A stretch of 64,000 nt of DNA from Planctomycetota bacterium (GTDB lineage Bacteria > Planctomycetota > Phycisphaerae > Phycisphaerales > SM1A02), in NCBI GenBank assembly GCA_039796075.1, contig JBDKKN010000134.1:9484-73483 (forward strand), in the 5' to 3' direction. Made by a program: the position numbers and the translations under genes. Under the pieces are notes generated by a model. The model was not told where the DNA came from. It was given only the letters and a program-made list of their open reading frames with translations, and made no database searches. Below are positions 802 to 64,000 of this stretch, in pieces. Each line of letters starts with the position of its first letter. Positions within the stretch are counted from its first letter, which is position 1.

Positions 802-867
802 TCCGAACCTCATGACCGATGCGTGCAGAGTCTTGTGCCACGCGATCTGCCTGCCTGCACCCCGTTG

Positions 868-24812: not shown

Positions 24813-24841
24813 GGCAACTCAATCTATACACTTCTCGGCTC

Positions 24842-36432: not shown

Positions 36433-36782
36433 TCACTCTCGCTTCGATTGGTTCCGTGGCACCCATGACCCCTGCCATGCCCGCCAACATCCAAGTGACG
36501 TTGGCATTGGCCATCATCCTCTTTGCGATCGGCTTGGTTGGGTTCCTCACACGTCGCAACATGATCCTGATGTTCTTGTCCACCGAGCTGATGTTCCAAG
36601 CGGCGGCGCTTGCGTTCGTTGCATTCGGCCGCATGTGGATGGATCTCTCTGGACAGTTGATGGTGATCTTCATCCTCACCGTCGCCGCCGCCGAGGCTGC
36701 ACTTGCGCTCGGCCTAGTGGTGCTCCTGTATCGCCGCAAAGAAACACTCAGCAGCGAAGCATGGGCAGAACTCAAGGAATGA
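36429..36782 (+). CDS. nuoK: NADH-quinone oxidoreductase subunit K
   Basis: LALAIILFAIGLVGFLTRRNMILMFLSTELMFQAAALAFVAF...VIFILTVAAAEAALALGLVVLLYR is the classic NuoK. The start overlaps the nuoJ stop. Confidence 0.9.
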   Translation: MITLASIGSVAPMTPAMPANIQVTLALAIILFAIGLVGFLTRRNMILMFLSTELMFQAAALAFVAFGRMWMDLSGQLMVIFILTVAAAEAALALGLVVLLYRRKETLSSEAWAELKE

Positions 36783-42676: not shown

Positions 42677-42967
42677 CTAGCCCCGCTTAATGACCCAACG
42701 CTCAAAGAGCCAGGTTGTAAATGGTGGCACCGATGCCAGAAGTGCAAGCGCTGTCACCGCCAAGCTCCAGCGTGCCTCGCGCGCGAGGCGCAGTGCGGCA
42801 ATGCAATAGATCACAAAGAGAACACCATGGACTGGGCCCATGACCTGTACGCCGATCGGGTTGTTCATCGCCCCATACTTGCAGTACATGCCAACCAAGA
42901 GACCAGCCCAGGACAATGCTTCCAACAGCGCGGCAATTCGAAACTGCGTGCGAATACTGGTCATCAA
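42677..42967 (-). CDS. DUF3817-family small integral membrane protein
   Basis: 96 aa with 3 TM helices. FRIAALLEALSWAGLLVGMYCKY...PVHGVLFVIYCIAAL...LLASVPPFTTWLFERW matches the DUF3817 pattern I know. Confidence 0.7.
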   Translation of the reverse strand: MMTSIRTQFRIAALLEALSWAGLLVGMYCKYGAMNNPIGVQVMGPVHGVLFVIYCIAALRLAREARWSLAVTALALLASVPPFTTWLFERWVIKRG

Positions 42968-48968: not shown

Positions 48969-51900
48969 CTAGTTCGGGACCTTCACGAAACTCACGATGC
49001 GGGGTTGCTCGCCGGGGCGGTCGACGGATGAACGGTCGATGGTCATCATGTAACGGGAGTCATCCACAATCGACTCTGGGTCGGTGCCGTTCCATTGACC
49101 GGTGAGCGTGTCCTGCTTGATGGTGCGAATCCGCAGCCAAATGGTGAAGACATCGCTGCGCGTGGTGACGATGTTGGAAATACCGCGCAGCATCTGGTTC
49201 TGCTCAACGGCATCGCCTGAGGTCATGTCGTAGTGATAGGCCTTGCTTTCGACGAACTGTGTGCCCAACGAGTCGTTGGAAGGGTCATTGATTTCATTGG
49301 CGATCGTGTTTCGATCATCCGTGGCGGTTACCAACAAGTGCTTGTCGATGGCGGTTCGACCAGTGAGGGGATAGACCTGCGCTTGGCCCGCGGTGAGCGT
49401 TTGCGGAATGCCCTCGGTGCGGTACGCCAATGCTGTACCGCCGACCGATTGCGGACCGGAGCCAACGGATGAACCGCGGCCGGCGCCCCAGGATGGATCG
49501 TCCCACTTGGTTCGGTACGGATCAGTACCCGCGAAGCGGATCGACCAGCCTTCGGCTTGGTTCCAACTTGAACCAACCAACGCTGCAGCGTCAGCACTGT
49601 CTGCCACGTTGTTGCGGTTCACGTCGGCAACCTTGCCCTTGGCGATGTCTTGCACGTCGGGCGTACCGTTGCCGTCGGCATCGCTTGCGGCCGTAGGCGC
49701 AAACTCCGCGCCCTTGGTCAGCACTGCCAACTCACCGATACTGTCAAAGCCACGCTCGCTGCGCGTACCCGGCGCCCACTCGCGGTGGTTGGACGCATCC
49801 GGGAAATCAAGACCGCGGCTGTAGTAGCTCGGCATGTTCTGGAACAAGTTGTTGCTCAAGTCCGGAAGCACATTGCCCTTGTTGCGCCACAGTTCCATTG
49901 CCTCCGCCACGCGAACGCGCGGGGCTGCCACGCCGTAATCAAAGAGAATGGAATTCGGATTGCCCGGGCCAGGGTTCCCGCCGCCCATGTCGTACGGGGC
50001 GGCTTGCCACGCCAGTGGATCGCGTACTAAGCGACGCTTACTCAGTGCAGAACTGGCTGCATTGAGCGTGGCAGGATCGGAATCGGCAGTCTTCGTGATT
50101 GGGAAGTCATCGTCATAGACCAGGCGCATCATCTGCGGCATGGCGTGCAACACCTCAATGGGTGCGGTATTGATATTGATGAGTCCAGGCGTGAGCTTGC
50201 CTTCAAAGTTGCGAGCCAACCGCAGGCGTCGGTTCTCGGCGGTGGCGCGCTCATTGAAATCGATCACATTATCGGGGGCAGTAGTTGCAGTCCACGCGTC
50301 AAACGGTGCCGCACCACGATCATCAACAACGAATGCGTCCAGCAACGCTGCACCACCCGGCAGACGAGCGTTGAAGCCGATGCCGTTCTGTTGCGGAGGG
50401 GTCGTCGCGGTAATCGCACCCTCAATCGTCGGCGGCATAGTCTGAATGCCACTCAAGAGCGTTGGTCGACCGCCCGTTGGTGCAACGGTGTCGTATTGCG
50501 CCGGCTCAAGTTGCAGGCGGTTGTAGTGCTCCTGGTCCGAACCGTAACTAAGAACGCCGGTTGAAGTTGCAGGCTTGGGGAACTTGGGGAAGTACAGGTC
50601 AGCGGTCGAGTCCTGCGGCTGCGCAAGAATCTCCGCCAGCGTGGCGTAAGCACGGCCACTACCGGTGCGCTGCACCAGCGTGCCCCACAATGGAACATCC
50701 AAGATTTCCGCCGCCTGATCAAAGTCCGCATCCTTCTGGAAGAGACGGTAAGGCGCAGTGAAATTGCTGGGGTCGGCACCGTTGACGAACTTGCGATCAG
50801 AGACGCCCTTCTCGCCGTAGTTAAGTGTCATACCCGTTGGCGGCGTGGCGTTTGCCAGGAGCCACGCGGGGTACTTGTAGGTGCGCGTTTGGGTGCTTTC
50901 GGGAATGCGGGTCGGGAAGAAGGTCGGCTTGCCGCGCTTCAGTTCGCCCCAAATGTTGTGGTAGAGCGAAGAGATCCACAGGCTCTGCGGAGAGCCGGTC
51001 GCATCACCGTCGGGCAAGCTGGTGGCATTGGCAATGATCTCGCCCTTGCGGCCAACGCCCTCTTGCGTGCCACCAACATAGGTCTCACGACCCACGGACC
51101 CGCCATTGGGTGAACTGGATGCCATGACGCCGGTGGTACGCGCAAACGCGTAGCGCGGCGTGCGTTCATCCATGGTGATGACCCCAACACCGGGAGGTGC
51201 AGGCGTAATGCCGGCCTGTGTATCAAACAACCACTGCCGCGAGCCACGCGCCCAAGTGGTGAAGAAATCGCCAGTCTGCATGCGAATGCCGTCAATCGCC
51301 AGACTGCCCGAGCGACACACGATGGCTGGTGGCGGCGGGAGCGAGCCTCCAGAACCATCGATGTAGAGGCGATTGATCAAGTCCGTGACGCGCTGACCAG
51401 TCTGGCCATCAAGCGTTGGATCCAACTCATTCTCAAAGCGATCGACCACCGTCCAACTTGGCGTACCGCCGTTTGACGGATAGATGGCGCGGCGCAACTC
51501 AATGTAGGAATTTGTTGGCGGAGCACCACCCACTGAAGGTGATGGCTTCCAACGGTTCATGTCGCCACTGACATCAAGTCCAGCGAACACCGTAGGGGCG
51601 GTGGTTCGAGTGGCGTCAAAGTACAGCGTTCCGCCACGACGGTTGGCGTCGAAGTACTGCGTGCCGGTAGCGGATGATCCGCCCCACGCTGGCGAGAAGA
51701 TGGCGTTGATGTCCGGCTTGAAGAATTGACCAGGCTTGATATCGTTGGATGGATCGGCCTCGGTGGTGGTGATCGTTCCATCGCCGTCGGTGTCGATCGA
51801 CGCGCCGATATCGAGGAAGTCGAGCCATGCATCGCGCGGGAACGCGTCGCCGTTTGGGAACTTTTCTGGAAGGCTGAACACCAGCGCCGTACGCGGCTCC

Positions 51901-54900
51901 TCTGGCGTGCAGGGTCCAAGTTCCACATCCGGGCCGTAGGTGTTGCCACTACGACTTCCAGTCGGACCCGGAAGTCCGAAGAAGAATCGCTGCGGTGAGC
52001 CCGAAGCAGGATTGATGCGCAGCTCAAAATCCGCCAAGTTCACTGGCTCGTTGAACGGATTAGCAATCTGCGCAACAAACACCACTGCTGGCCAGGTGGC
52101 CGGATTGGCGGGGTCATACACCACGAAGTGCTCCCCGGCGCCGTTTGCAGTGCAACTTGGCAGCGCGAACGGATCGCTTGCATTCAGTGAGCAATTGTCA
52201 GGATCGGGGCAGCCCGGCAACGGATTGCCACCCGGAGGCCCCAGCACGGCATCAAGTTCAGCTTGGGTGACCTTGGACTTTGGATAGACGAAGGCGAGGA
52301 AGACTTCCTGAATGAAGGGCTGCTTCTCAACGCCAATGAAACCTCCATCGGTGATTCCGCTGGTGCCGAGCGCATCGGTTGGAACTGCAATCGCCTCAGT
52401 CGGATGCAACGGCTGATCGAGGTACATGGTGTTGGTGATACGACGCTTGCCGTCGCGATAGCACAACACGTTCGCCGAGAAGCTGGCGATCATCATCTTG
52501 GTGGCGGCCAACGACGCATTGGCATCAGTAGAGTTCTGACCAGGTCGACCGAGGTAACTCTGGCGAGTGCCTTCATCAATGAGCGCGCGGCGCATGACGC
52601 GTTGAAGGTCGAAATCAAACTTGCGATCCGCCTGCGTGATCTGCGTTGGAGTAGCGGCGACGCCCACGGTCGGCACGTCATTCGGGCGGCGTAAGTCAAT
52701 CTTGCGATTGTCCGTCAGGAAGCGCTGGCGCCCGCGTTCGAAGTCCTCAACATCCGCAACGCCGTCACCGTTGGCATCACGAATGGCAATCCCAAAGCCA
52801 CTGGAGGCAGCGGGAATCAACCCGGCTGCTGGGAACATGATGTTTGGGTGGTACGGCGCCAAGTCATCGGCCGTGGTCACTGCGCCGTCGCCGGTGACGT
52901 CGTCGGGGTTACCGTCCAAGTCAAAGTCCACGCCACGCTTCAGATAGGCAGGACGAACGCGCAAGGAATTACCAACAAAGTTCGTGTCAGGCGTACCAGC
53001 TGCCTGCAGGCTGTGGTCAACCACCGTCCACAGTCGCGGCGGCAACATCTCGTTGCGTGCACCGGAAATGGTAGTCATCATGCGCCGGTGGTCAAGCAAC
53101 AACTCTGCCCCACCGCGCGGCGCGAACGCGGCGCCCGTGCTCCATGCCGCCCGCGCGCGCCAGTCTTGAACGCGAACATCGTCCGGGTCAAAGAACCGCG
53201 CTGACTCCTCACGCGAACGCGTAGAGCGGAGGAATTCGCCAAACAGAATGTCGGTGGAGTACATCGATGCCGAACTATTCAAGGCATTCTCAATGCGGCT
53301 GACCGTCTGCGGACTGTTTTGCCCACTTGCGGCGCGCAACTCAATTTCATCGTCCGAGCCAAACGGGCTCAGGGTGACCAAGCGAGTAGCGGTGACCGGG
53401 TCAACCAGTTCGCCGCCGTTGGCCATGGCCTTGAAGTAACTCAGACGATCGGCCGCGCGCGAAAGGACGAAGGAGTCGCCGTACACCGCCGACGATCCAG
53501 TCAGACCAAAGTCCGCGGATGGATCAAAGAACGGAACCACGCTGTTGACGTTGCCAGCGGTGCCTTCTTGGGTCATACCGATGTCCCGCAGGAAACCGGT
53601 CTGGTAGGGATCGGCGGTGTTGCCACCCGCCGCTGCCAACTGCGTGCGCCGACCTTCCCAACGTTCCGGTGCCCAACCAACATCCACGCCGCCGGTTGGG
53701 CCAGCGGCATTGCTGGCTACGGCGTAGACCAGTTTGGCAGCGGTCTGCGAAGGCTGCGCCGCTGGCGCTGGAAGCAGCGTCTTGAAACTAAAGTTCACCC
53801 GGTATTCCGGGTCATTCTCCCGTGCATTGAAGAATCCAACGATGGGGTCACGGAAGCCCGCCGTGTTTCCGACTGTGCTTGTTTCGTCGTACGAATCACG
53901 GCGCGTGACCAGTGCCACGTCAGACGGCGTCAACCCATTGGTGCTCGCACGGTCCGACCGTGTGGCTGTGTTGACGTTGATGAGCGCGCTGTTATCCATG
54001 ATGCGCACCGCAATCAGCTGTCGAGTGCTGCGATCACTGGAACTGGGCGCTACAAACCAGAATGAATCCGTCCAGCCATCGCCGTCGGCGTCGGCAAGCG
54101 TGCGTCCAATCAGGTTGCGTGATGTTGGCACGTACGCCGTGCCGGAAAGAATCTGCTTGAACTCGTCTGATGGATCGCCAAACGCGCCAAGTTGCAGGAA
54201 GTTGGGGAGTGCGTCGAGACGGCGAATGGGCGTACTCACACCCGTGCCGTTCACCCCTTTGATCATCTGCGCGTGCGGTGGAACCGTGTTGAAATTAGTG
54301 ATGCCGACGTTGAACCATTGGCTGACGCGGTTCTGCCAGTCGGTGCTGTCAAGCACCAAGTATCCGCGTGCATCCTTGCCGGTGACCAACGGCTCGCGCG
54401 GCGCCACATACGGCAGCCACTGCTCATAGGGCGTACCCAGATTGAGTTCCCCTGCCGCCCAACGGTCGGCGGCAGCGGGAGTTGCGGCGGGAACCATGTG
54501 ATCCCAGTTCGATTCAACGTTGGAGATATTCCAGCACAAACGGAAACCGTTCTCTGCCGTTGGAATCCAACTCATGTGCGGCCAGTGACTGAAGCCCAAT
54601 CCTTCCGGCGAGAGAATCGGCGCGCCGTTGGAGAGCGCCAAGTTGCCCCAGTTGGCGTTGAACGGCAGCGGAACCTGTGTGTTCGGCGGCGCGGGCGCCA
54701 CGGGATTCTGCAACTGCGTGAGGAGCATGGCGCGCACCGGCTCCGTGCTTGCCAACCAACGCGTATCGCCAAAGCCGGGGTTCCCGATCGGATTACCTTC
54801 ACCGGTAATGTCGCCGTACCGCGCGGGCCAGTTGGTGAATGGGTTCACAGAGAACGGCGCAAAGTTGTAGCCGTCCAGGTAACCGTCACCACCGGCCACT

Positions 54901-55304
54901 GAGGTGAAATCCAGATTTGAAACCGAGTCAAAGTAGTCAACGCCGTAACGAATGGCGAGCGGTTCCGCGGGAAGACGCGGGAAGTCACTGCGCGCCATGA
55001 ACTCACCGAAGGCCGGCTGACCCGTCAGACCAGTGGCCTGGTTGGCAGCGATCTGTCCGGCAGCGGCAGTCATGCTCGAACTATCAATCCGCTTCACAAA
55101 GAGCGCATTCGCTACTTCTTGGGCAACGTCTGCGGCTACCGATTCAACACGTGCCTCTCGGCCTGTGGCCTTCTGCTGCGCGGCAGCCTGCGCGCGCCCA
55201 CTTTGCGCTCGCACCAAGAATGCGGTGGCAATGATGACCAGCAGCACCAAGATGGCGGTGACTAAGACAAGCGTGTTTCCGCGGGTCGTGGTGGTGGAGT
55301 TCAT
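48969..55304 (-). CDS. Giant (2111 aa) GspK-like minor pseudopilin / pseudopilus-tip protein
   Basis: The N-terminus MNSTTTTRGNTLVLVTAILVLLVIIATAFL is the GspK-type (RG.(A/T)L..VL hydrophobic helix, with no Glu at +5). GLININTAPIEVLHAMPQM at about residue 1706 (DNA ~50131-50187) is the GspK I-N-(I/V)-N-T-A helix-hairpin-helix-like signature. It is the last gene of the pseudopilin row. Multiple DxDxDG-type acidic loops occur: DADGDGWTD, DANGDGVADVED, DLDGNPDDVTGDG, DTDGDGTITTTE and SDADGNGTPDVQD. Confidence 0.7.
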   Translation of the reverse strand: MNSTTTTRGNTLVLVTAILVLLVIIATAFLVRAQSGRAQAAAQQKATGREARVESVAADVAQEVANALFVKRIDSSSMTAAAGQIAANQATGLTGQPAFGEFMARSDFPRLPAEPLAIRYGVDYFDSVSNLDFTSVAGGDGYLDGYNFAPFSVNPFTNWPARYGDITGEGNPIGNPGFGDTRWLASTEPVRAMLLTQLQNPVAPAPPNTQVPLPFNANWGNLALSNGAPILSPEGLGFSHWPHMSWIPTAENGFRLCWNISNVESNWDHMVPAATPAAADRWAAGELNLGTPYEQWLPYVAPREPLVTGKDARGYLVLDSTDWQNRVSQWFNVGITNFNTVPPHAQMIKGVNGTGVSTPIRRLDALPNFLQLGAFGDPSDEFKQILSGTAYVPTSRNLIGRTLADADGDGWTDSFWFVAPSSSDRSTRQLIAVRIMDNSALINVNTATRSDRASTNGLTPSDVALVTRRDSYDETSTVGNTAGFRDPIVGFFNARENDPEYRVNFSFKTLLPAPAAQPSQTAAKLVYAVASNAAGPTGGVDVGWAPERWEGRRTQLAAAGGNTADPYQTGFLRDIGMTQEGTAGNVNSVVPFFDPSADFGLTGSSAVYGDSFVLSRAADRLSYFKAMANGGELVDPVTATRLVTLSPFGSDDEIELRAASGQNSPQTVSRIENALNSSASMYSTDILFGEFLRSTRSREESARFFDPDDVRVQDWRARAAWSTGAAFAPRGGAELLLDHRRMMTTISGARNEMLPPRLWTVVDHSLQAAGTPDTNFVGNSLRVRPAYLKRGVDFDLDGNPDDVTGDGAVTTADDLAPYHPNIMFPAAGLIPAASSGFGIAIRDANGDGVADVEDFERGRQRFLTDNRKIDLRRPNDVPTVGVAATPTQITQADRKFDFDLQRVMRRALIDEGTRQSYLGRPGQNSTDANASLAATKMMIASFSANVLCYRDGKRRITNTMYLDQPLHPTEAIAVPTDALGTSGITDGGFIGVEKQPFIQEVFLAFVYPKSKVTQAELDAVLGPPGGNPLPGCPDPDNCSLNASDPFALPSCTANGAGEHFVVYDPANPATWPAVVFVAQIANPFNEPVNLADFELRINPASGSPQRFFFGLPGPTGSRSGNTYGPDVELGPCTPEEPRTALVFSLPEKFPNGDAFPRDAWLDFLDIGASIDTDGDGTITTTEADPSNDIKPGQFFKPDINAIFSPAWGGSSATGTQYFDANRRGGTLYFDATRTTAPTVFAGLDVSGDMNRWKPSPSVGGAPPTNSYIELRRAIYPSNGGTPSWTVVDRFENELDPTLDGQTGQRVTDLINRLYIDGSGGSLPPPPAIVCRSGSLAIDGIRMQTGDFFTTWARGSRQWLFDTQAGITPAPPGVGVITMDERTPRYAFARTTGVMASSSPNGGSVGRETYVGGTQEGVGRKGEIIANATSLPDGDATGSPQSLWISSLYHNIWGELKRGKPTFFPTRIPESTQTRTYKYPAWLLANATPPTGMTLNYGEKGVSDRKFVNGADPSNFTAPYRLFQKDADFDQAAEILDVPLWGTLVQRTGSGRAYATLAEILAQPQDSTADLYFPKFPKPATSTGVLSYGSDQEHYNRLQLEPAQYDTVAPTGGRPTLLSGIQTMPPTIEGAITATTPPQQNGIGFNARLPGGAALLDAFVVDDRGAAPFDAWTATTAPDNVIDFNERATAENRRLRLARNFEGKLTPGLININTAPIEVLHAMPQMMRLVYDDDFPITKTADSDPATLNAASSALSKRRLVRDPLAWQAAPYDMGGGNPGPGNPNSILFDYGVAAPRVRVAEAMELWRNKGNVLPDLSNNLFQNMPSYYSRGLDFPDASNHREWAPGTRSERGFDSIGELAVLTKGAEFAPTAASDADGNGTPDVQDIAKGKVADVNRNNVADSADAAALVGSSWNQAEGWSIRFAGTDPYRTKWDDPSWGAGRGSSVGSGPQSVGGTALAYRTEGIPQTLTAGQAQVYPLTGRTAIDKHLLVTATDDRNTIANEINDPSNDSLGTQFVESKAYHYDMTSGDAVEQNQMLRGISNIVTTRSDVFTIWLRIRTIKQDTLTGQWNGTDPESIVDDSRYMMTIDRSSVDRPGEQPRIVSFVKVPN

Positions 55305-55336
55305 GGGGTACTTTCGCGGAATGCGATCAGCAACAC

Positions 55337-57328
55337 TCAGTCCTTGCGACGCTTCGGAACATCAAGCACAAATTGAAACTCACGACCGCGGTCCAAGACC
55401 AGGCGCGGGTCATGGATAGTGGCGGTGACACGAATCTGTGTTGGCCACGGGGTGTAATCCTCGCGCGCAACAATGAATCCGTCCGGAGTCACGGTGTAAG
55501 CCTCGTCTTGGTTGAAACCAAACACGGCCGTGTAGACCCGGACGGGCACGCCTGCCCCGAACGGCGCCTGAATGGCAGCGGGCGAATTCGCCGCTGCGCC
55601 AGCGGTGCCTTCGATCGCCTGCGCAACGGCGCGCATGTGGAAATTGGTGCGAACCGTGGTGGTGGTGGATCCACCGTTCGGAACGTCGGGCATCACGGAA
55701 GTGTCCTGTGCGAGCGCTACGCCGAGTTGTTGCGACGCGGGAATGACTACCGTGCCATCGCCAGAATCCGGGAAGCCAAACCACGGCTGCTGACGCACGC
55801 GCTGGGTCGGGTCTTCGGCGTTTGCTGGCCATGTATCGGCAAACGGCTCATAGCCGCGCAGGAGGGTCGTGATAGTTGGCGTGACCGCATAGGTGGGCGC
55901 AGCATCAATCGAAAGCCGCACGGTAACTGGCAATACCGCGCCTGACGAGTCCGTCTGCCGGCCGGTCAGTGGCTCCCACGTCCAATCCACTTGGAAGGTG
56001 CTGCAATTAGTCACCAGTGTTGGCGAGGTGAGCATCTCGCTCTTGCGATCGGTGTTGCCGATTGATTTCTCCGAGCGTGGCCAGCCGAGGAGACCAAAGG
56101 TGTTACTGATGTTTGTTGTGGCGGGAATACCAAAGGTGCCGCGCATGATCCGATCTCGCTGCGTGGAGAAACCATTGATCGCACCCGGGTCCATGTTGTT
56201 GCCCACGGCGACAATCGCGCTACCACTCGGCCATGCCGGAGCCCCGGCGCCCACCGGCCATGAAATCGGTGCAATGCCGTTGCCAGGAGTGTTAAAGGGC
56301 ACGGACATCGAAGACAGCGTCACTGCGCCGCCTCCAACTGGAAGCGGCGTCTGCAGCCGAAGCGTGGGTGAAATTTCTCGGCGGACCTTGCCAAAGTCAC
56401 TGGCCGCAACATCAACCCACCCAGACTGCATGACTGGACTTGGAATGAGGTTGGTACTCAGGGAAATGCGATTGCGGTCGCGCATCTCTTGAAAGTACGA
56501 AGGGTCCGAACCAGCTGCGCCCGTGTACGAACGATCGCCAAAGATGGACGGCGCAGAACTTGGTCCTTGCGTTCCGGCCACGGTGAGATTGCTTGGTTCC
56601 GGGTAGTAGATGGGCCGACCGCCGTCATCGGAGAGGAGCACTGATTTACGCGCCAGCACCCACTGTCGCGCCTCAGGCTGGTTGGCAAGCACGCGCGGAC
56701 CCGCCGTCTGCGTGGTGGTTCCGAACTGCCAGCCAAGTTGGTAGGTCAGCGGGTCAAACCACGTCCACGGAACCACCTGCTTCACACCGCTCGGAGCGGG
56801 ACTGACGCCGGTGATGATCGGCTTGATGACCGAGTTCGGGTTTGATCCGGGTGGATTACTGGTTGGATCATTCGGCAGCGATGGAAACTGCACGCCGTGT
56901 CCGTAGTACACGCGCGCGCCGCGCGACTGCTGACCACCGCCGCCAGACACCAAGTCGCCGGGACCGGCCCAGCGCGCCGATGTTTCCGTACCCGCGGTGA
57001 AGAACACAATCTGATCGCAGCGCAAGATGGCATTGGCATCCAACTGCGGATTCAAGAGCGGTGCGTTGGCCGATGGGGAGATCACCTGATTGACATCATT
57101 GCGGACTGCCACGCACTGAATGGCCATGTAGCCGTCTCGGCACAGGCGCTCCAAATCGCGGCGCATCTGCTCTTCGATCACGGTGCCCTGCTGCAGCACA
57201 TCCGCGTTGGCTTCGCCGGTACTGGAGACCTTGCTCGCCGTATTAAAGATCTTGCTAGTGGCAATGATCACCGCCAGCATGACCACCACGGCGATCAGAA
57301 GTTCAACGACTGTAAATGCGCGACGCAT
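55337..57328 (-). CDS. Prepilin-type N-terminal methylation-domain protein, GspJ position (663 aa)
   Basis: MRRAFTVVELLIAVVVMLAVIIATS is a class III signal ((G/A)|FT..E with Glu+5). It lies between the I-position and K-like genes. The GspJ assignment is positional only. Confidence 0.6.
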   Translation of the reverse strand: MRRAFTVVELLIAVVVMLAVIIATSKIFNTASKVSSTGEANADVLQQGTVIEEQMRRDLERLCRDGYMAIQCVAVRNDVNQVISPSANAPLLNPQLDANAILRCDQIVFFTAGTETSARWAGPGDLVSGGGGQQSRGARVYYGHGVQFPSLPNDPTSNPPGSNPNSVIKPIITGVSPAPSGVKQVVPWTWFDPLTYQLGWQFGTTTQTAGPRVLANQPEARQWVLARKSVLLSDDGGRPIYYPEPSNLTVAGTQGPSSAPSIFGDRSYTGAAGSDPSYFQEMRDRNRISLSTNLIPSPVMQSGWVDVAASDFGKVRREISPTLRLQTPLPVGGGAVTLSSMSVPFNTPGNGIAPISWPVGAGAPAWPSGSAIVAVGNNMDPGAINGFSTQRDRIMRGTFGIPATTNISNTFGLLGWPRSEKSIGNTDRKSEMLTSPTLVTNCSTFQVDWTWEPLTGRQTDSSGAVLPVTVRLSIDAAPTYAVTPTITTLLRGYEPFADTWPANAEDPTQRVRQQPWFGFPDSGDGTVVIPASQQLGVALAQDTSVMPDVPNGGSTTTTVRTNFHMRAVAQAIEGTAGAAANSPAAIQAPFGAGVPVRVYTAVFGFNQDEAYTVTPDGFIVAREDYTPWPTQIRVTATIHDPRLVLDRGREFQFVLDVPKRRKD

Positions 57329-58563
57329 CAGAGCTCCCTCACCGTGGCATAGACCGGAACCAATTGCGTTCCATTGGCGTCAATGATGGCTGGGACGTAG
57401 TGCATGGTGCGAACGCCCATTGGGACATTGTCGGTGGTGCCACTGGCCGGCAGCTCGTAGTCGTCGTACACCTGCGCATTCGGAACGCGCGGGACCGGCG
57501 CGCTGAAACGGACTTGCAGCGGATCAATGGAATTACGCCGGCCCTGTGCCACACGGTGCACGTTGCTGTTGTTGTCAATGATCCACTGCCCCGGCAACTG
57601 CCATTGTTCGCTCACTTGCGGAATCGCAGCGGCGGCGAAATCTGTAGCGGCAATTCCTTGATTCGCGCCGAAGAATCCAGTGGTGAACGGTGCTTGGCCA
57701 GTCAGCGAAAGTGTTGGTGGCTGCTCCCACCCGGTGCGCACCTGCAGTCCAATCGGTGCACCTGTTGTTCCAGGCGCGCCCCCAATACCTGACTTGGGAA
57801 CGCGCCGGTACGGAACCGGCGGAAGACTGGGGTAACTCGCACCGGCGACCACCGTCGGCAGGCTCGGCGCACCGTTCGAAGGCGATGAGTAACTCCGCAC
57901 CGCACCGCCGACGCCGATGACGCGGTACACAAAGATGGCCACCTGAATGCGCCCGCCCATGCGGCGGAACATGCAGTCCCATGAGTACGTGGGCGGAGTG
58001 AACGTGGTGGCGCCTTCCGGTACGGATGGCCACCAACGCTCGCGTTGAGTGACGACGATCGGCGGCGCCAGGCTGGTGCGTGAGGAGTTGTACGGCGCAC
58101 CCCACAGTTTCAGATTGCCCCCACCCGTGCGGGTGACGCCTTGATTGGGAAACTCACAGAACTCTTGCGCGCTGGAGCCCGCGTTCTGAGCGAGCGTCGA
58201 GAAGATATCGATGGCACCCACGTCATCAATGGTGGTACCGCCTTGGTTGCTGCGGATCACGCCGGGGCGGATCCAACTCCAATCGCCAGCGCTGGGCCGG
58301 GATACGTAGCTGCCATTGGAGATGGACTGCGCCAAGAGGTTGGTGACGCCAAACTCTTCAAAGGTGCCAAAGTCCTCTGACTTCACACGACTGCGCAGCA
58401 GCCCCAGCGCCTGCTCCGCCACCACGGGTCCAAGCTGATCATCCGCGGTCTGTTGCTGCTGAGCAATGCCCGCAGGAAAGAGCGCCGACACGGAAATGAT
58501 TCCGATCGCCAGAATGAAGACGGATAGCAACAACTCGATGAGCGAGAATGCACGGCGCATCAC
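57328..58563 (-). CDS. Prepilin-type N-terminal methylation-domain protein, GspI position (411 aa)
   Basis: MMRRAFSLIELLLSVFILAIGIISVSALF. The A|FSLIE plus LLSVFILAIG pattern resembles the GspI/PilV type. The stop overlaps the next start (TGATG). Confidence 0.6.
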   Translation of the reverse strand: MMRRAFSLIELLLSVFILAIGIISVSALFPAGIAQQQQTADDQLGPVVAEQALGLLRSRVKSEDFGTFEEFGVTNLLAQSISNGSYVSRPSAGDWSWIRPGVIRSNQGGTTIDDVGAIDIFSTLAQNAGSSAQEFCEFPNQGVTRTGGGNLKLWGAPYNSSRTSLAPPIVVTQRERWWPSVPEGATTFTPPTYSWDCMFRRMGGRIQVAIFVYRVIGVGGAVRSYSSPSNGAPSLPTVVAGASYPSLPPVPYRRVPKSGIGGAPGTTGAPIGLQVRTGWEQPPTLSLTGQAPFTTGFFGANQGIAATDFAAAAIPQVSEQWQLPGQWIIDNNSNVHRVAQGRRNSIDPLQVRFSAPVPRVPNAQVYDDYELPASGTTDNVPMGVRTMHYVPAIIDANGTQLVPVYATVREL

Positions 58564-59597
58564 TTGGTGCCGATCCCGGGAACGCCCGTATATCGATTAA
58601 AGGTGATGCGGTCAGACTGCTCTTCAATGAACAGTGATTGATCACGAATGCGCGGCGGTGGGCTGCCGTTACCACCGATGGCTGTGCCCTTCCACGTGCT
58701 GGAGTTGAAACGATCACGCGCCTCGGCATCGTTAAAGACGGCCAGATACGGAACGTAATCGACTAGCGGCTCATCCAACGGTTCGTCGTAGATGAAATAG
58801 TCAACGTTGACCCCCGCGCCGCCATAGGCGCTCGTGGTGCCACGCTCCGGGAATCCATTGCCGTCGTAGTCAACAAACGACTTCACGTAGGCGTTCTGGT
58901 TACCGCCTGCGGCAGTCACCACTTCAAGCACCTGTTGCGGATTGCGCGAGAGCACGCGTCCGTCCGGACCAAACAACACACCGATGGCCCAGCCGAGTTC
59001 GGTGCGTGCCAAGTCCGGCGTGAATGTTGGTGGCGTCACCGCCATATTGGTAGTGCCTGCAAAGCGCGGCTGCGTGCGCCACTGACGATCGTTCTGACCG
59101 ACCGCTGTGTCAGTGACAAATCCGAAGGCCGGACCGGCAATCAAGACACCGGCTGGCAAGTCCCGTGTTGGAACACCTGGAACGGGAACGAATCGATCGG
59201 CGAACACATCGTCCACCATGAGCTCGGCACCGTAGGTGTTGGGTGTGGGAAGCGGCGTGCTAGCGGTGACCACCTCGCCGGTCCAACGAGCAGTGACAAT
59301 CTGTACCACTTGCGGCTCACGCGGCAATGCGCGGGACTGCCGACTTGGCGCCACGCGGAAGGTGACCATGACGTACGCGTTGTCTCGGATAGCGATGGCG
59401 CGCGCTGAGCCAAGGGATGCCACCACACCATTGGTGGCATTCGCCAACTTGGCATCGCGGGTGACCTTGCCGACGCTGATGGCCGTCAGCACTGCCAAGA
59501 TCATCATGATGCCCATGACCACCAACAGCTCCAGGAGCGTGAAGGCGGGCGCTCGGGTGAGCCGTCGCACGGAGGATGAATTGCGGGCGCTGGACAT
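58560..59597 (-). CDS. Prepilin-type N-terminal methylation-domain protein, GspH/FimT-like (345 aa)
   Basis: Start ATG 59597 gives MSSARNSSSVRRLTRAPAFTLLELLVVMGIMMILAVLTAISVG. It is followed by LANATNGVVASLGSARAIAIRDNAYVMVTF, resembling the GspH/FimT L...ARSEAI.R...V.L segment. The upstream 45 aa of the ORF are rejected. Confidence 0.6.
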   Translation of the reverse strand: MSSARNSSSVRRLTRAPAFTLLELLVVMGIMMILAVLTAISVGKVTRDAKLANATNGVVASLGSARAIAIRDNAYVMVTFRVAPSRQSRALPREPQVVQIVTARWTGEVVTASTPLPTPNTYGAELMVDDVFADRFVPVPGVPTRDLPAGVLIAGPAFGFVTDTAVGQNDRQWRTQPRFAGTTNMAVTPPTFTPDLARTELGWAIGVLFGPDGRVLSRNPQQVLEVVTAAGGNQNAYVKSFVDYDGNGFPERGTTSAYGGAGVNVDYFIYDEPLDEPLVDYVPYLAVFNDAEARDRFNSSTWKGTAIGGNGSPPPRIRDQSLFIEEQSDRITFNRYTGVPGIGTK

Positions 59598-59602
59598 GGG
59601 CG

Positions 59603-60448
59603 TCAGTTTGGGGGATCCAATTCGTACAGGTAGATGTTGTCGGCAGCGGCGGTGTTCTGGATAGTGGTGGAATCCGGGGTGGATTCGCCGGGCACTCCAA
59701 AGAGACCGTCGGGACCAGCGGACACCAGACATATACGGCGATTGGTGCAGACTCCAAGGAGATTCTCAGCAGGAGTTCGCACAGTTCCGTCAGAATCGGG
59801 AAGCGATGAAGTCGGTTCCGCCCCGTAACGCCACGCCCGACCGGGGAACACGAACGCAATGCGTCCGCCCCACGTATCCACCAGCTCCGATCGGGTCGAA
59901 TCCTTGGTGTTGGCGGTGGACTTGGCCGAGGGCGCGTACAAGACCGACGGCGTGCCGGACAAGATGTTGGTGGCGGGATAACTGGAGGTATTCGCCTCCG
60001 CGCGCAACATGCTCGGCGGGATACCCGCCAGCATCGGACGAATCGATTCCAGTTGCGCGAGCAGATTGACGGTGAATACTCCCGCGCCGCGTGCGCGCGT
60101 GTAAATCAACTTGTTGCCGGAATTATTAGGTGCTGCCGGCGTTCCTGGCTCACGAACATCAAAGACCTCAAGCGTGGCTCCGGATGGAAAGATCTCCGTG
60201 GTCGGCGCCGTCAGCGAGTTGAACGCCCCGTTGTACGTCACTGGTCGACCGGTCTGCCCTTCCCATTCGGTGAACGCGCTCTCCATGATGGTCATGGCGC
60301 TCTCCACCTGCGAACGCTCCGCGCGCCGCAACAGCGCGGAACCAACGCCCAACACCAAGGACGCCAGCACCAAGATGATGCTGATCACCACCATGATCTC
60401 AATCAGGGTGAATGCGCGTCCCGCATGGCGTGAGCGACGGCGACTCAT
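59603..60448 (-). CDS. GspG-like pseudopilin, second copy (281 aa)
   Basis: GRAFTLIEIMVVISIILVLASLVLG is the GspG-type N-terminus. The C-terminal LVSAGPDGLFGVPG...AADNIY resembles the GspG S.G.DG..G....DI tail. Confidence 0.65.
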   Translation of the reverse strand: MSRRRSRHAGRAFTLIEIMVVISIILVLASLVLGVGSALLRRAERSQVESAMTIMESAFTEWEGQTGRPVTYNGAFNSLTAPTTEIFPSGATLEVFDVREPGTPAAPNNSGNKLIYTRARGAGVFTVNLLAQLESIRPMLAGIPPSMLRAEANTSSYPATNILSGTPSVLYAPSAKSTANTKDSTRSELVDTWGGRIAFVFPGRAWRYGAEPTSSLPDSDGTVRTPAENLLGVCTNRRICLVSAGPDGLFGVPGESTPDSTTIQNTAAADNIYLYELDPPN

Positions 60449-61563
60449 GGGCCAAACCTCACAATGTTGTCCTCGTTGTATCCCTCGGTATCAGCGCGGA
60501 TCGTTGGATTCCAACGTTGGTCCGGGCCAAAGGAGAGCAGCGCAAACTCCGATGCCATGGCAGCGCGGCTTGCACCGGAGTCATTATTTGCATCCGGCAT
60601 GGCGTCAACATCTTCGCCTGGGCTGAACCGCTGCGGACGCAGTGCAACAATGTCCGCCAACGACCAGGTGCGATCAGTGGAGCGCGGGTCGCCGTTCAGG
60701 TAGCCGCGTCGATAGAAGAGGACTGGCTTGCCAAAGAAGTCCAAGAGGCACTTGGGTGCCAGATCAAAGTTGTTGATCTCGCCCGGCTTGGCAACAATCG
60801 GCGTGCCATCCGTCTGAAATCCGGTGATGCCGCCAATCTCGCTGTCTGCCTTCACTTCCAAGTACGGTCCAAGCGACTTGCCGCGCAGAAACGCACTGGT
60901 TGAATCTGCGTTGCCGGTGGCAGGCGCGGTCGAAGCCAAGTTGCGCGAACCAAAGACGCCCTTCCCCTGTGTTCCAGTACGTGGATTGAGGAGCGAGCCC
61001 CATCCACCATCGGAGCCAGGGTTGCGAATTCCAAGAGCGGGTTGCTCGCGGTAGCCAGGAGTGTTGGTATTGGTAGGAAGCGCGCCGGTCCCTTCCATGA
61101 TGACTCCATAGCCATCCTGTGAGCGATCGCCAAGCCCCAGTAAGTACTCGGGAATGGTGGTCCCCGAGCACCACTTCTGCAGGTTCTGCCGCTGCGTGGT
61201 GGACCACGTTCCGTACGCGGGACCACCGTTCTGCGTTCCGGCAAGCGATGGCGGATCCAACATGTCGCGGCACCAACCAAGCTGTCCAAACGCCGTACCA
61301 GAGACGCCGGAACCCACTTGCGAAGGCACGCCAAGAATAGGAGGCATGTATCCGGTTTCAGCACGGAAGCGAGTCAGCCCCGCCACGATGGAGTTCATCA
61401 GGAACTCCGTGTTCGCAATGCGAGCACGCCGCGCGCCGTAACCAAGGCCCACAATCAGCGTGGAGATCACGCCGATCACAATGCCAAGCACCACCAAGAT
61501 CTCCACCACGGTAAAGCCGCGGCGGATGACGGAACGCTGCAACGGACGGGCGAACTCCATCAC
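60445..61563 (-). CDS. GspG-like major pseudopilin, extended (372 aa)
   Basis: RRGFTVVEILVVLGIVIGVISTLIVGL (G|FT..E), followed by ARIANTEFLMNSIVAGLTRFRAETGYMPP, which is like GspG A...I..L..AL..Y....G.YP. The C-terminus LLSFGPDQ...NEDNIV is GspG-like. It lies directly after gspF with a 4-nt overlap. Confidence 0.7.
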   Translation of the reverse strand: MMEFARPLQRSVIRRGFTVVEILVVLGIVIGVISTLIVGLGYGARRARIANTEFLMNSIVAGLTRFRAETGYMPPILGVPSQVGSGVSGTAFGQLGWCRDMLDPPSLAGTQNGGPAYGTWSTTQRQNLQKWCSGTTIPEYLLGLGDRSQDGYGVIMEGTGALPTNTNTPGYREQPALGIRNPGSDGGWGSLLNPRTGTQGKGVFGSRNLASTAPATGNADSTSAFLRGKSLGPYLEVKADSEIGGITGFQTDGTPIVAKPGEINNFDLAPKCLLDFFGKPVLFYRRGYLNGDPRSTDRTWSLADIVALRPQRFSPGEDVDAMPDANNDSGASRAAMASEFALLSFGPDQRWNPTIRADTEGYNEDNIVRFGP

Positions 61564-62861
61564 TTGCCGCCCTTCTGGCCGGAGACGCTTTCAATCATGC
61601 TGACCAGCGGAAGGAACAGCGCCAGAACGATCGTTCCGACGATACCACCCAGGATCACCACCATGAACGGCTCCAACAGACTCAGCAGACTCGCCACGGC
61701 CACGTCCACTTCTTCGTCGTAGTTGTCGGCGATCTTCATGAGCATCACGTCCAGGTCTCCGGTCTCTTCACCAACGTCGATCATGTTGACCACGATGGCG
61801 TCGCAGACCTTGGCCTTGCGCAACGGACCGGCGAATGTTTCGCCTTCCTTGATGCTGTCATGGACGCTGCCGAGCGCCTTCTCAAATACCCAGTTTCCAG
61901 AGGTTTCCTTGGTAATGGTGATCGCTTCCAGGATGGGAACACCGGCGGCAACCAGCGTTCCAAGTGTTCTGGTGAAGCGCGCCACGGTGGTCTTCTCCAC
62001 CAGCGTTCCAATGACGGGGATCTTCAAAATGATCCAGTCAAAGGCCGCTCGCCCAAACTCGGTTTTTCTGATCACCTTGAGCAAGAAGAACAACAAGAAT
62101 GGCGACACAATGATCCACGCCACCCCGGGCACTCGCTGGTCGGGGCTGGCGGTACCGGCGATCCACTTACTGGCAGCAACAAGCCACAGCGTCAGCGCTG
62201 GAAGCTTGACGTTGAAGTCGTTGAAGATCTCCTGGAACTTCGGGATCACGAAATACATGATGCCGGTGACGATCGCCACGGCAATACCAATGACCACCAC
62301 TGGATAGATCAGTGCGCCCTTAATACGACGGCGCAAGCGCTGGCCCTTTTCCATGAAGTCGGCCAGACGCTGCAAGATGACATCCAACACGCCTCCGATC
62401 TCACCAGCCTTCACCATCTTGGTGTAGAGGCGATCGAATGCCTTGGGATGACGGGCAAAGGCATCGCTCAGCGTGTTACCACCCTGAACGTCTTCGCACA
62501 CGGTCTCCAGAATGCTCTTCAGCTTGCCGGCCTTCTGCTGGCTCTCCAAGATCTGCAAGGAGCGAAGCAGCGGAAGACCTGCGTCCTGCAGCGTGGAAAG
62601 TTGGCGAGTGAACAAGCACATGCGCTTCAGCGGAACGCCACCGAAGGACAGGTTCAGGCCGCCGCCCTTCTTCTTCTTTTTCTTGGTAGCGGCAGCGACG
62701 TTCGGCTTGGCCGCACTGCCACCCTTCTGCTCGCGCACGTCGGTGGGGTACAGCCCATCGCCACGGAGCTTCTGGATCGCATCATCGCTACTGGACGCGT
62801 CGATGGTGCCCTTCTGAGATTTTCCAGAGGCGTTCATCGCCTCATATGCGTAGGTGGCCAT
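61560..62861 (-). CDS. gspF: Type II secretion / type IV pilus platform protein GspF/PilC family
   Basis: Two GspF repeats are present: FTRQLSTLQDAGLPLLRSLQIL...L..A...HPKAFD.LY..MV.AGE.GG.L and FTRTLGTLVAAGVPILEAI....ETSGN. There are three TM helices, and the C-terminus is GTIVLALFLPLVSMI. Confidence 0.9.
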   Translation of the reverse strand: MATYAYEAMNASGKSQKGTIDASSSDDAIQKLRGDGLYPTDVREQKGGSAAKPNVAAATKKKKKKGGGLNLSFGGVPLKRMCLFTRQLSTLQDAGLPLLRSLQILESQQKAGKLKSILETVCEDVQGGNTLSDAFARHPKAFDRLYTKMVKAGEIGGVLDVILQRLADFMEKGQRLRRRIKGALIYPVVVIGIAVAIVTGIMYFVIPKFQEIFNDFNVKLPALTLWLVAASKWIAGTASPDQRVPGVAWIIVSPFLLFFLLKVIRKTEFGRAAFDWIILKIPVIGTLVEKTTVARFTRTLGTLVAAGVPILEAITITKETSGNWVFEKALGSVHDSIKEGETFAGPLRKAKVCDAIVVNMIDVGEETGDLDVMLMKIADNYDEEVDVAVASLLSLLEPFMVVILGGIVGTIVLALFLPLVSMIESVSGQKGGK

Positions 62862-62868
62862 GGCTCAG

Positions 62869-64000
62869 TTATTCCTCGCTCAGCGTTTCGCGGACAACCT
62901 CATCAATGGTTGTCTGACCGTCGTAGATAGAAAGAAGGCCGCACTCGCGCAGGGTGCGCATTCCGTGGCGGCGGCATTCGTGCCCAAGCACCGATGTGCT
63001 GGCCTGGCTCATGATCAATTCGCGCAGCGGATCGGTCATCACCATGATTTCAAAGAGCGCCAGACGTCCCTTGTAGCCACTCTTGTTGCAGCGCTCGCAG
63101 CCGCGGCCGCGGAAGAAGGTTCGACCGCCCACATCTTGCGGACGCATGGCAAGTTCCATGAGTTGCTCTTCGCTGGGGATGAACTCTTCCTTGCAGTTGG
63201 TGCAGATGCGACGCGCGAGACGCTGCGCGACAATCGCCTCCAAGGTTGCGGTGAGCAGGAAGCTCTCCACGCCAAGGTCAAGGAGACGGGCGATACTGGA
63301 CGGCGCGTCATTGGTGTGCAGCGTGGTGAACACCAAGTGACCGGTGAGCGCTGCCTGGATGGAGATCTGCGCCGTCTCCAAGTCACGCACTTCGCCCACC
63401 AGAATGATGTCCGGATCTTGACGAAGGAAGCTGCGCAAGAGCCGCGCGAAGGTGAGTTCCTGATCCACATTCACCTGGCACTGAATCAGACCTTCAATGT
63501 CATATTCCACCGGATCTTCGGCGGTGAGAATCTTGGTCTCAATGTCATTCAACTCATTGAGCGCGGCGTACAGCGAGGTGGTCTTGCCGGAACCCGTGGG
63601 GCCGGTGACGATGACAATTCCGTTGGGCTTGTTGATCAGCGTACGCAACTTCTCTAGGTCGTCATCGCGCAGGCCGATGCGGTCCAGGGAAAGCTGCACG
63701 TTGGAGCGGTCCAGTACACGCAACACCACGCTCTCACCGAACATGGTTGGAAGCACAGCGACGCGCAAGTCAACGGGGCCGGAATCAAGGCTCATTTCCA
63801 CGCGACCGTCCTGCGGCAAGCGGCGTTCCGAAATGTTCAGCTTGGCCAAGACCTTCACGCGGCTCACCAATGGCATCGCCAGTGGCTTGGGCACCGGAAG
63901 CATTTCATAGAGCACGCCGTCAATGCGGTAGCGCACCTTGAACTCGGACTCAAAGGGCTCCATATGAATGTCACTGGCCTTGTCGGCGATGGCCTGCATG
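62869..64000 (-). CDS. gspE: Type II secretion / type IV pilus ATPase GspE/PilB family (N-terminus outside window)
   Basis: ASDIHMEP, RYRIDGVL, LPQDGR, Walker A VTGPTGSGKTTSLYA, the Asp box TAEDPVEY, Walker B DPDIILVGEVRD, the His box TGHLVFTTLHTND, and the tetracysteine CTNC...CERC. The reading frame is still open at the window edge. Confidence 0.95.
   Translation of the reverse strand, partial: MQAIADKASDIHMEPFESEFKVRYRIDGVLYEMLPVPKPLAMPLVSRVKVLAKLNISERRLPQDGRVEMSLDSGPVDLRVAVLPTMFGESVVLRVLDRSNVQLSLDRIGLRDDDLEKLRTLINKPNGIVIVTGPTGSGKTTSLYAALNELNDIETKILTAEDPVEYDIEGLIQCQVNVDQELTFARLLRSFLRQDPDIILVGEVRDLETAQISIQAALTGHLVFTTLHTNDAPSSIARLLDLGVESFLLTATLEAIVAQRLARRICTNCKEEFIPSEEQLMELAMRPQDVGGRTFFRGRGCERCNKSGYKGRLALFEIMVMTDPLRELIMSQASTSVLGHECRRHGMRTLRECGLLSIYDGQTTIDEVVRETLSEE

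Follow-up and report, generated by a model that had tools for sequence, protein, structure and literature searches.

A gene cluster of uncultured aquatic planctomycetes that probably encodes a type IVa-like filament system with oversized subunits and a giant tip protein

A 64,000-nucleotide (nt) stretch of contig JBDKKN010000134.1 (positions 9,484 to 73,483; assembly GCA_039796075.1) from a planctomycete of the class Phycisphaerae, hereafter called the window, ends in eight tightly packed genes that all run in one direction on the minus strand (48969-64000). These genes, for an ATPase (E), a platform protein (F) and six further proteins (P1 to P6), probably specify a retractile, type IVa-like filament whose subunits are oversized and whose giant tip protein acts in cis, a function that we infer. 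We read the window as holding the distal eight genes of a ten-gene operon, pilB1-pilT-pilB2(E)-pilC(F)-P1-P2-P3-P4-P5-P6 (Table 1), and the cluster is conserved across an uncultured group of aquatic planctomycetes. As an overview figure, its fibre subunits are 2 to 6 times the usual size: GspG, GspH, GspI, GspJ, and GspK of E. coli K-12 comprise 145, 169, 125, 195, and 327 amino acids (aa), respectively, compared with 372 and 281 (both of the G type), 345, 411, 663, and 2111 aa here.

Table 1 Positions of the pilus genes in the window and of the parts of P6 discussed in the text. A slash marks the cleavage site or its equivalent.
Feature	Position	Strand	Remarks
E, assembly ATPase of PilB/GspE type	62869..64000, runs past window end	-	C-terminal 376 aa inside window
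F, inner-membrane platform protein of PilC/GspF type	61560..62861	-	433 aa
P1, large GspG-type pilin	60445..61563	-	372 aa (GTG start) or 371 aa (next ATG); mature 356 aa
P2, second GspG-type pilin	59603..60448	-	281 aa; mature 269 aa
P3, minor pilin in GspH/FimU position	58560..59597	-	345 aa
P4, minor pilin in PilV/GspI position	57328..58563	-	411 aa (GTG) or 410 aa (ATG)
P5, minor pilin in PilW/GspJ position	55337..57328	-	663 aa
P6, giant protein in GspK/PilX position	48969..55304	-	2111 aa; presumed tip subunit/adhesin
P6 N-terminal pilin-like helix, aa 10-67, after RG/NTLVLV, without Glu5	55104..55277	-	one continuous 58-residue helix in the AlphaFold2 model
P6 DxDGDGxTD loop (DADGDGWTDS, aa 405-414), candidate Ca2+ site	54063..54092	-	invariant in 23 sequences
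P6 first xNxNTA motif (ALINVNTA, aa 439-446)	53964..53987	-	N438, N443, N445, A447 invariant or nearly so
P6 second xNxNTA motif (LININTAP, aa 1708-1715)	50160..50183	-	L1708, N1710, N1712, T1713, A1714 conserved
P6 C-terminal module (final 86 aa), best-conserved segment of the family	48972..49229	-	three terminal beta-strands (AlphaFold2)

The initial annotation of this DNA had described an operon in the gene order of a type II secretion system (T2SS) in which every pseudopilin is enlarged. Open reading frame (ORF) analysis confirmed the eight-gene minus-strand set, the sizes, the absence of Glu5 from the last protein, and the junctions, at which neighbouring genes overlap by 1-4 nt or are separated by 7, 5, or 32 nt. 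P1 to P5 carry one class III signal each, namely RRGFTVVE (RRG/FTVVE, 61501-61518), GRAFTLIE, APAFTLLE, RRAFSLIE (RRA/FSLIE), and RRAFTVVE (RRA/FTVVE), respectively. When the whole window was translated in six frames, exactly five matches were obtained to [GA]F[TS]xxE with two hydrophobic residues after it, all of them in P1 to P5, against 0.017 expected from composition. P6 starts MNSTTTTRG/NTLVLVTAIL, with Gly at -1, Asn at +1, and Leu in place of Glu at +5. In Pfam, P2 and P3 reached or just exceeded the N_methyl cut-off, P1, P4, and P5 fell short of it, and the remaining matches of these five proteins were at chance level (E > 0.1). T2SSG, T2SSI, T2SSJ, DUF1559, and SBP_bac_10 were not among the Pfam matches (E <= 1) of P1 to P6; the proteins are thus not of the DUF1559 or SBP_bac_10 families, and a reading of them as DUF1559 solute-binding-type proteins, which the initial annotation had named as one outcome that would undo its interpretation, was dropped.

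A scan of one genome per GTDB species yielded 53 related loci, all in metagenome-assembled genomes (MAGs) and mostly from Phycisphaerae/Planctomycetota. In the about 20 loci with enough flanking sequence, the order T-E-F-P1-P2-P3-P4-P5-P6 (T, PilT-family gene) is kept down to 25-30% identity, and P1 to P6 measure 326-463, 228-289, 291-360, 350-504, 481-731, and 1470-2879 aa, respectively. The synteny check in related genomes that had been proposed with the initial annotation therefore showed the size expansion to be conserved; both the expansion and the G-G'-H-I-J-K-like order are real. A shorter cluster occurs in two distant Phycisphaerales loci (L055:4063-14359 and L056:3385-13629), with four prepilin-signal proteins of about 300, 390, 390-410, and 550-580 aa and a giant protein of 1755-1768 aa, a version in which tblastn recovers P4 or P5 and a portion of P6 only. 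The largest P6 proteins, of 2879 aa (L053:9950-18589) and 2681 aa (L042:9890-17935), belong to two marine MAGs, and the expansion differs by lineage. The operon has not been characterised: its homologues bear only generic names ('hypothetical protein', prepilin-type, 'PulG', and one 'FimT family'), and nothing specific was found in the literature on Phycisphaerae pili.

These loci also bear on the possibility that the large sizes stem from faulty annotation or assembly, through fused ORFs or wrong starts in a MAG. The mechanical ORF of P3 reaches 59732 (390 aa), longer than the likely gene, for which an independent gene call on an identical contig gave the 345-aa start; furthermore, in locus L058 (14486-20393), on a low-coverage long-read contig, the P6 position was called as at least three genes (557, 544, and 832+ aa), through either a frameshift error or a true split. 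However, uninterrupted ORFs of the same size recur in dozens of independent assemblies from different projects, P6 is conserved over its whole length, and the AlphaFold2 models of both P6 halves are confident. Because about 20 loci, down to about 25% identity, contain these six ORFs in unchanged order and at similar sizes, re-evaluation of the start codons leaves them whole and does not split them. On the homologues, the full-length conservation, and the related loci, we rejected the fused-ORF explanation, which is highly improbable; the conserved sizes and order indicate that the expansion is ancient and selected and is not an assembly artefact.

The identity of the machine was examined through its ATPases and platform protein. 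E matched Pfam T2SSE (E 2.5e-132) and F matched T2SSF (E 2.7e-61, two repeats); in NCBIfam, F scored 398 bits with GspF and 385 bits with PilC, both below the cut-off, and the F protein is identical in sequence on other contigs. In two related loci (L002 and L003), the DNA is 95% identical to the window over E and the cluster extends upstream, where a 593-aa PilB-like ATPase (PilB1) and a 383-aa PilT-family ATPase precede E (589 aa) and a divergent coaBC lies upstream of the PilB1 gene. The PilT-family gene of the relatives scored 453 bits with TIGR01420 (cut-off 319). The full-length E orthologue (L002) has an MshEN N-domain and scored 595.1 bits with PilB (TIGR02538) and 564.6 bits with GspE (TIGR02533, cut-off 630.25), both below the cut-offs. 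By tblastn, PilT immediately precedes E in all related loci with a fetched flank long enough to show it, and the ten-gene layout, with unrelated genes flanking it, is also present in the distant loci L058 (P3 24% identical) and L059 (P3 38% identical).

PilT is characteristic of type IVa pili (T4aP) and of mannose-sensitive haemagglutinin (MSH) pili and was lost in the T2SS (PMC6668835). Since a PilT-family motor adjoins E in the relatives, the cluster was read as a retractile pilus and not as a secretion piston. The wider assignment to the type IV filament superfamily made at the outset was thus supported, and the T2SS label did not hold: a PilT-family ATPase and a second PilB lie upstream of E in the relatives, and E is slightly nearer to PilB than to GspE, at scores below both cut-offs. 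A search just past position 64000 for a secretin, GspC, GspL, GspM, and a prepilin peptidase, made in the flanks of the relatives, found none of them in the locus and yielded the PilT and the PilB-like ATPase. At the other end of the operon, the gene after the K-like gene is convergent, as initially annotated, and no gspC, gspD, gspL, or gspM follows in the window or in the relatives; the unrelated neighbours there encode a transglutaminase-like protein and MlaE, a promoter and terminator scan of the 3' end was without result, and pilus or secretion genes were not found in the remaining 48 kb of the window.

The region just past window coordinate 64000 (L002:1385-6335) holds one further feature. 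Both PilB-like ATPases begin with tandem MshEN-type motifs, RRFGRVLTKMGKATRDDVQLGLTAQ and KKLGVIMIELGKVSALDVEVGLAGQ in E and QKLGEILIGLGVVTLAQVDEAF and MRLGEILVETNACKEEDIAKALAQQ in PilB1, and Pfam finds MshEN in both. These motifs presumably resemble the cyclic di-GMP-binding motif of MshE, which would suggest cyclic di-GMP control of assembly.

A T2SS could nevertheless be envisaged in which the enlarged pseudopilins make up a short pseudopilus in the periplasm and drive substrates through a secretin whose gene lies elsewhere. As in E. coli K-12, G-H-I-J-K follows directly on E-F, GspG-type motifs are present in the first pilins, Glu5 is missing from the K-type subunit, which has C-terminal strands of its own in the absence of PilY1, and an insertion appears to lie inside that subunit, as the alpha-domain does in GspK (PMC8179133). 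The GspE and GspF models also score nearly equal to the PilB and PilC models. However, the retraction ATPase of the PilT family is conserved inside the cluster, together with the second PilB; GspC, GspD, GspL, and GspM were found neither in the 64-kb window nor in the related-locus flanks, in any lineage examined, and GspO is likewise not in the locus. In addition, the T2SS family models are not reached, E and F being below the GspE and GspF cut-offs and P1 and P2 scoring 18 and 27 bits with the GspG model TIGR01710, far below its cut-off of 88.85, and a tip of about 3200 residues would be hard to fit to a piston in the secretin vestibule. We consider a T2SS of this kind unlikely.

The cluster resembles the type IVa pilus of Pseudomonas, Myxococcus, and Neisseria in several respects. 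PilB-type and PilT-type ATPases and the PilC platform are encoded together, with PilT (in the relatives, as is PilB1) above its cut-off and PilB and PilC the best or near-best models at scores below the equivalog cut-offs. Four pilin-like proteins follow in the H/I/J/K-equivalent order, the FimU, PilV, PilW, and PilX counterparts giving N-terminal matches only, below the cut-off and in the canonical order. The last of them lacks Glu5, a very large protein ends the minor-pilin series, and P6 carries DxDxDG-type loops, which we take to be similar to the Ca2+ site of PilY1. Unlike in the T4aP, the large protein itself occupies the PilX/GspK position and a separate PilY1 is missing; the candidate major pilins belong to the GspG type (269-356 aa mature), the minor pilins are all 2-3.4 times the canonical size, and pilMNOPQ is not in the locus. 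A PilY1/PilC tip adhesin with a C-terminal beta-propeller gave no Pfam or NCBIfam match in P1 to P6, nor was a PilY1-type gene found after P6, where the genes are unrelated, both in this window and in the flanking sequence read for two distant loci.

P1 and P2 resemble the T2SS major pseudopilin GspG at both ends, as judged from their motifs. The P1 family aligned with E. coli GspG at 96% probability over aa 3-72 (hhalign), and P2 matched N_methyl at 25.3 bits (cut-off 21.2), TIGR02532 above the cut-off, and GspG at E 4.6e-6 in its N-terminal part only. Toward the C-terminus, the family-conserved motifs DxWGxPIxYYRR ... SxGPD ... NxDNIVE of P1 and DTWGGRIAFV ... SAGPDG ... ADNIY of P2 are co-linear with DPWGNDYVLV ... 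SAGPDGEMG ... DDITNW of GspG, and the extra 130-220 residues sit between the N- and C-terminal GspG-like elements. P1 is hence a candidate major subunit and P2 a candidate major or abundant subunit. Solved T4aP pilins have 111-161 aa, and the M. xanthus pilin of 208 aa was termed 'unusually large' (PMC11046646); P1 or P2, if the major subunit, would exceed both in size. If the diameter scales with the square root of the subunit mass, we roughly estimate that subunits of this size should give a fibre of about 8-9 nm, wider than is usual. In two lake MAGs (L031 and L030), P1 extends to 463 aa, and its alignment contains insertions of tens of residues.

The matches of P3, P4, and P5 are confined to the first 40-85 residues, yet they fall in the canonical H-I-J order. 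P3 matched TIGR02596, 'Verru_Chthon cassette protein D' (E 4.5e-11; 43.2 bits, cut-off 70), and GspH (E 7e-5), and it aligned with E. coli GspH at 93% over 68 aa (hhalign); its homologues are named 'prepilin-type N-terminal cleavage/methylation domain-containing protein', 'PulG', and, in one case, 'pilus assembly FimT family protein'. P4 matched PilV (TIGR02523, E 6.5e-5) below the cut-off and only N-terminally, with 20.3 bits for N_methyl, and both the profile search of the Protein Data Bank (PDB) and hhalign against E. coli GspI recovered the N-terminal pilin helix only. P5 gave weak N-terminal matches to Verru_Chthon C (E 0.021) and GspJ (E 0.075 and 0.16) and aligned with E. coli GspJ at 79.5% over 37 aa, the N-terminal helix only (hhalign); its family profile had no match in the PDB past the pilin helix.

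The P3 profile also matched WD40 proteins in the PDB (E down to 1.8e-12). These matches were spurious, being summed sub-threshold hits of one hairpin against repeat proteins: the P3 family has the hairpin 'GVLFGPDGxxxxRN' ('GVxFxPDG') at about aa 225-245, which mimics WD40, and no real WD40 domain.

P6 belongs to a large family without recognised domains. Its more than 230 homologues of 1650-2520 aa contain no Pfam domain, and the named ones are all 'hypothetical protein' from Planctomycetota/Phycisphaerae MAGs. An exhaustive HMMER search with the last 472 aa returned at least 411 clusters (50% identity), whose full-length members span 1400-2880 aa; the named ones were Planctomycetota/Phycisphaerales hypothetical proteins, and among the matches listed, library members less than about 60% identical to the query matched best at their own extreme C-terminus. 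P6 itself has no Pfam or NCBIfam match at the cut-off, and invariant columns extend along its full length, from aa 19 to aa 2103. At the N-terminus, the family consensus RRGNTLVLVTAILVLLVIIATAF keeps the RRG motif; P6 thus has the features of a GspK/PilX-type subunit, with Gly at -1, no Glu5, a long N-terminal helix, and a conserved consensus. The start of E. coli GspK, QRG/VALLIVLMLL, is also without Glu5.

Several short motifs follow this helix (Table 1). In the DxDGDGxTD loop, residues D405, D407, G408, D409, G410, T412, and D413 are invariant in the 23 sequences compared, four more DxDxDG-type loops begin at aa 793, 843, 1171, and 1875, and a few family members have weak EF-hand, dockerin, or TSP3 matches; the motifs suggest that all five loops are candidate Ca2+ sites. 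The first xNxNTA motif appears analogous, by eye, to FNLNAL (aa 103-109) of E. coli GspK, which has two xNLNxL motifs. From the second, LININTAP, begin weak matches to Pfam T2SSK (PF03934) in 9 of the 23 family members (best E 0.049), and GspK NF037980 matched two of them (best E 0.011). TIGR02600, 'Verru_Chthon cassette protein A', matched 16 of the 23 (best E 2.4e-5), always co-linearly and with the last about 60 residues of the member against positions 1195-1253 of the 1296-position model. These matches link P6 weakly to GspK and Verru_Chthon A and are leads, not proof; a homologue search with the C-terminal profile toward both families returned only short fragments of the P6 family, and a diverse GspK alignment from a plasmid collection was dropped (421 of its 437 matches came from E. 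coli).

The structure of P6 was predicted with AlphaFold2 as two halves from a 67-sequence alignment. Both models were confident, with a predicted local distance difference test (pLDDT) of 79 and a predicted template modelling score (pTM) of 0.83 for aa 1000-2111, and a pLDDT of 73 and a pTM of 0.66 for aa 1-1150. The three terminal strands (aa 2052-2062, 2079-2090, and 2102-2109) coincide with the most conserved segment of the family. The extra sequence of P6 has no recognisable domain or fold known from the PDB. As pilin-type motifs stand at both ends of P1, P2, and P6, the sequences suggest that the extra residues of these three proteins are inserted within the pilin fold and not appended to it.

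P6 has parallels among the tip proteins of other filaments. According to a 2026 study, a tip complex becomes licensed when a terminal beta-strand completes the sheet of its PilK-type subunit; this strand is supplied in trans by PilY1 and in cis by GspK and the about 600-aa CpaL (bioRxiv 10.64898/2026.02.14.705861). In CpaL/TadG of the tight adherence (Tad) system, an N-terminal pilin-like domain is followed by a middle part of about 470 residues on the tip, and the extreme C-terminus returns to complete the sheet; the MSHA protein MshQ, of about 1200 aa, is encoded after the PilIJK homologues in its operon (bioRxiv 10.64898/2026.02.14.705861). P6 resembles CpaL and MshQ in its layout of N-terminal helix, bulk, and conserved C-terminal strands and in its operon position. 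It differs from them in being 2 to 3.5 times larger, in belonging to a PilB/PilT/PilC-type and not a Tad system, and in having no detected sequence similarity to either. That the most conserved part of P6 is its extreme C-terminal strands fits the rule of a terminal beta-strand in cis for GspK and CpaL.

The Verru_Chthon cassette proteins A-D (TIGR02600, TIGR02598, TIGR02599, and TIGR02596) are the closest curated families and are themselves uncharacterised; no paper on the cassette or its TIGR accessions was found in a literature search. P3 matches D, P4 and P5 match B and C weakly, and A is a large protein by its model, matched at the C-terminus by P6-family members as described above. Unlike the cassette, the present family occurs in Phycisphaerae, and all scores are far below the cut-offs (D 43.2 against 70, C 14 against 256.5, B 13.2 against 51.4, and A about 16-19 against 332.3). 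By their TIGRFAMs descriptions, B, C, and D are presumably prepilins. In modular pilins, recognisable domains such as vWA or lectin are grafted on small or minor pilins, with 860 aa in the most extreme case (Raynaud et al. 2021, PMC8179133). Here too, pilin modules are enlarged by extra sequence that is presumably displayed on the filament; unlike in modular pilins, every filament subunit is enlarged, and without a recognisable domain. Enlarged 'modular' pilins are thus already known, and what is new here is that all six subunits are enlarged.

In the mechanism that we propose, a prepilin peptidase encoded elsewhere would cleave the G/A-F(T/S)xxE signals, and P3, P4, and P5 (counterparts of GspH/FimU, GspI/PilV, and GspJ/PilW) would form a priming complex on the PilC platform with P6 (counterpart of GspK/PilX). 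P6 would be anchored in this complex through its Glu5-less N-terminal helix and its extreme C-terminal beta-strands, so that the about 1900 intervening residues could serve as a built-in adhesin atop the fibre. It would then replace PilX plus PilY1, taking the topology of CpaL/TadG and GspK to an extreme and filling the role of PilY1 in the T4aP, MshQ in MSHA, or the middle part of CpaL in Tad. Under this tip, the PilB-type ATPase or ATPases would polymerise the large GspG-type P1 and/or P2, and PilT would depolymerise them. The place of each protein in the fibre, its retraction, and the binding of Ca2+ by the DxDGDG loops are all predicted in this way, as is a function in the adhesion or capture of particles or polymers, possibly Ca2+-dependent and coupled to PilT-driven retraction.

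Several observations weigh against such a filament. All carriers of the operon are uncultured, and a fibre has yet to be observed. The sequences of PilT, PilB1, and the N-terminus of E, which fall beyond the window, come from relatives and not from the contig studied here; the residue at -1 is Ala in four of the five signals; and a secretin, PilMNOP, and a prepilin peptidase were not found in the 64-kb window and the flanks of related loci, so that any such genes would have to be located elsewhere in the genome. In the T4aP, pilMNOP, pilQ, and pilD are often at separate loci (PMC6668835). A tip of 2111 aa would, moreover, have to cross the outer-membrane secretin. The homology of P4, P5, and P6 to I-, J-, and K-type minor pilins, which the initial annotation had proposed for a tip complex, is weak, with matches in the N-terminal helices and short motifs only. 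The presumed parts of the P6 pilin-like domain fall in different half-models. When both half-models were compared with 350,542 PDB chains by Foldseek, nothing was retrieved at E <= 0.001, GspK included, the only trace being a weak lamin-tail-like immunoglobulin domain at about aa 1000-1145. Likewise, neither the P6 profile nor its C-terminal profile matched E. coli GspK (hhalign), and PDB sequence-profile searches with the P6 family and the C-terminal module gave no match.

It could therefore be asked whether P6 is a filament subunit at all, or a giant surface or periplasmic protein held in the membrane by a signal-anchor and co-transcribed as a substrate or partner, the true tip consisting of P3 to P5 only. 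The lack of significant sequence or structural similarity to GspK or PilX, the Asn at +1 next to the missing Glu5, and Pfam and NCBIfam scores all far below the cut-offs would agree with this. On the other hand, the RRG motif is followed by a 58-residue helix, as in GspK, the P6 gene is invariably the last of the pilin series, and P6 is weakly related to Verru_Chthon cassette protein A. Furthermore, its best-conserved part is the extreme C-terminus, as expected of a strand that completes a pilin sheet. A membrane-anchored non-subunit is, on this evidence, rather improbable, and we retain P6 as the presumed tip subunit of a type IVa-like filament.

A bolder version of this interpretation can be put forward only as a long shot. 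In it, P1 and P2 would build a thick, retractable 'fishing' fibre with an about 340-kDa tip of P4 to P6, a new structural class with which planktonic Phycisphaerae would capture and reel in macromolecules or particles; P6 would then be the largest pilin-type subunit known, with folds absent from the PDB. Pili-like fibres of 12 nm that bind dextran have been described on Planctopirus and Gemmata, where their genes were not identified (PMC5394234). These fibres offer a tempting parallel from a different class, and the 'fishing' fibre might be their molecular counterpart.

Other parts of the window contain genes of separate interest. Three consecutive Proton_antipo_M proteins of 934, 573, and 529 aa (36368-42440, plus strand) look like an Mrp-antiporter or complex-I-like module, and in the first of them Proton_antipo_N is preceded by about 290 aa of N-terminal sequence, an unusually long extension. 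The window is rich in peptidases (823-4496 and 32816-33922, plus strand; 42964-44751, minus strand), among them two adjacent M14 carboxypeptidases and two M28 aminopeptidases, and it encodes a POT-family peptide transporter (24725-26476), a combination that fits a peptide-scavenging lifestyle. A 471-aa protein has six RCC1 repeats (7549-8964, minus strand; Pfam RCC1_2, E 4e-45). Five ORFs of 308-596 aa without a Pfam match at E <= 0.001 are putative genes (44840-46630, 15329-16255, and 30418-31437, plus strand; 17249-18844 and 5787-7025, minus strand), and the one at 44840-46630 is separated by about 2.3 kb from the downstream end of the pilus operon.

In the usual view, type IV filaments are built from small pilins, and function is added by one adhesin (PilY1) or one grafted module. 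In contrast, a whole class of abundant aquatic bacteria appears here to keep a system in which every subunit is enlarged, and whose priming subunit seems to have grown to 1400-2880 residues of unrecognised folds while retaining only the pilin-like helix at its N-terminus and the conserved strands at its C-terminus. If this is true, the size limits for what a PilB/PilC/PilT machine assembles and retracts would be wider, the system would provide an extreme natural test of the model in which a 'terminal beta-strand in cis' licenses the tip, and one would have to ask how a tip of this kind passes through the envelope of planctomycetes. The uncharacterised Verru_Chthon cassette families would also gain a first functional context, and the surface fibres of Phycisphaerae a candidate gene set.

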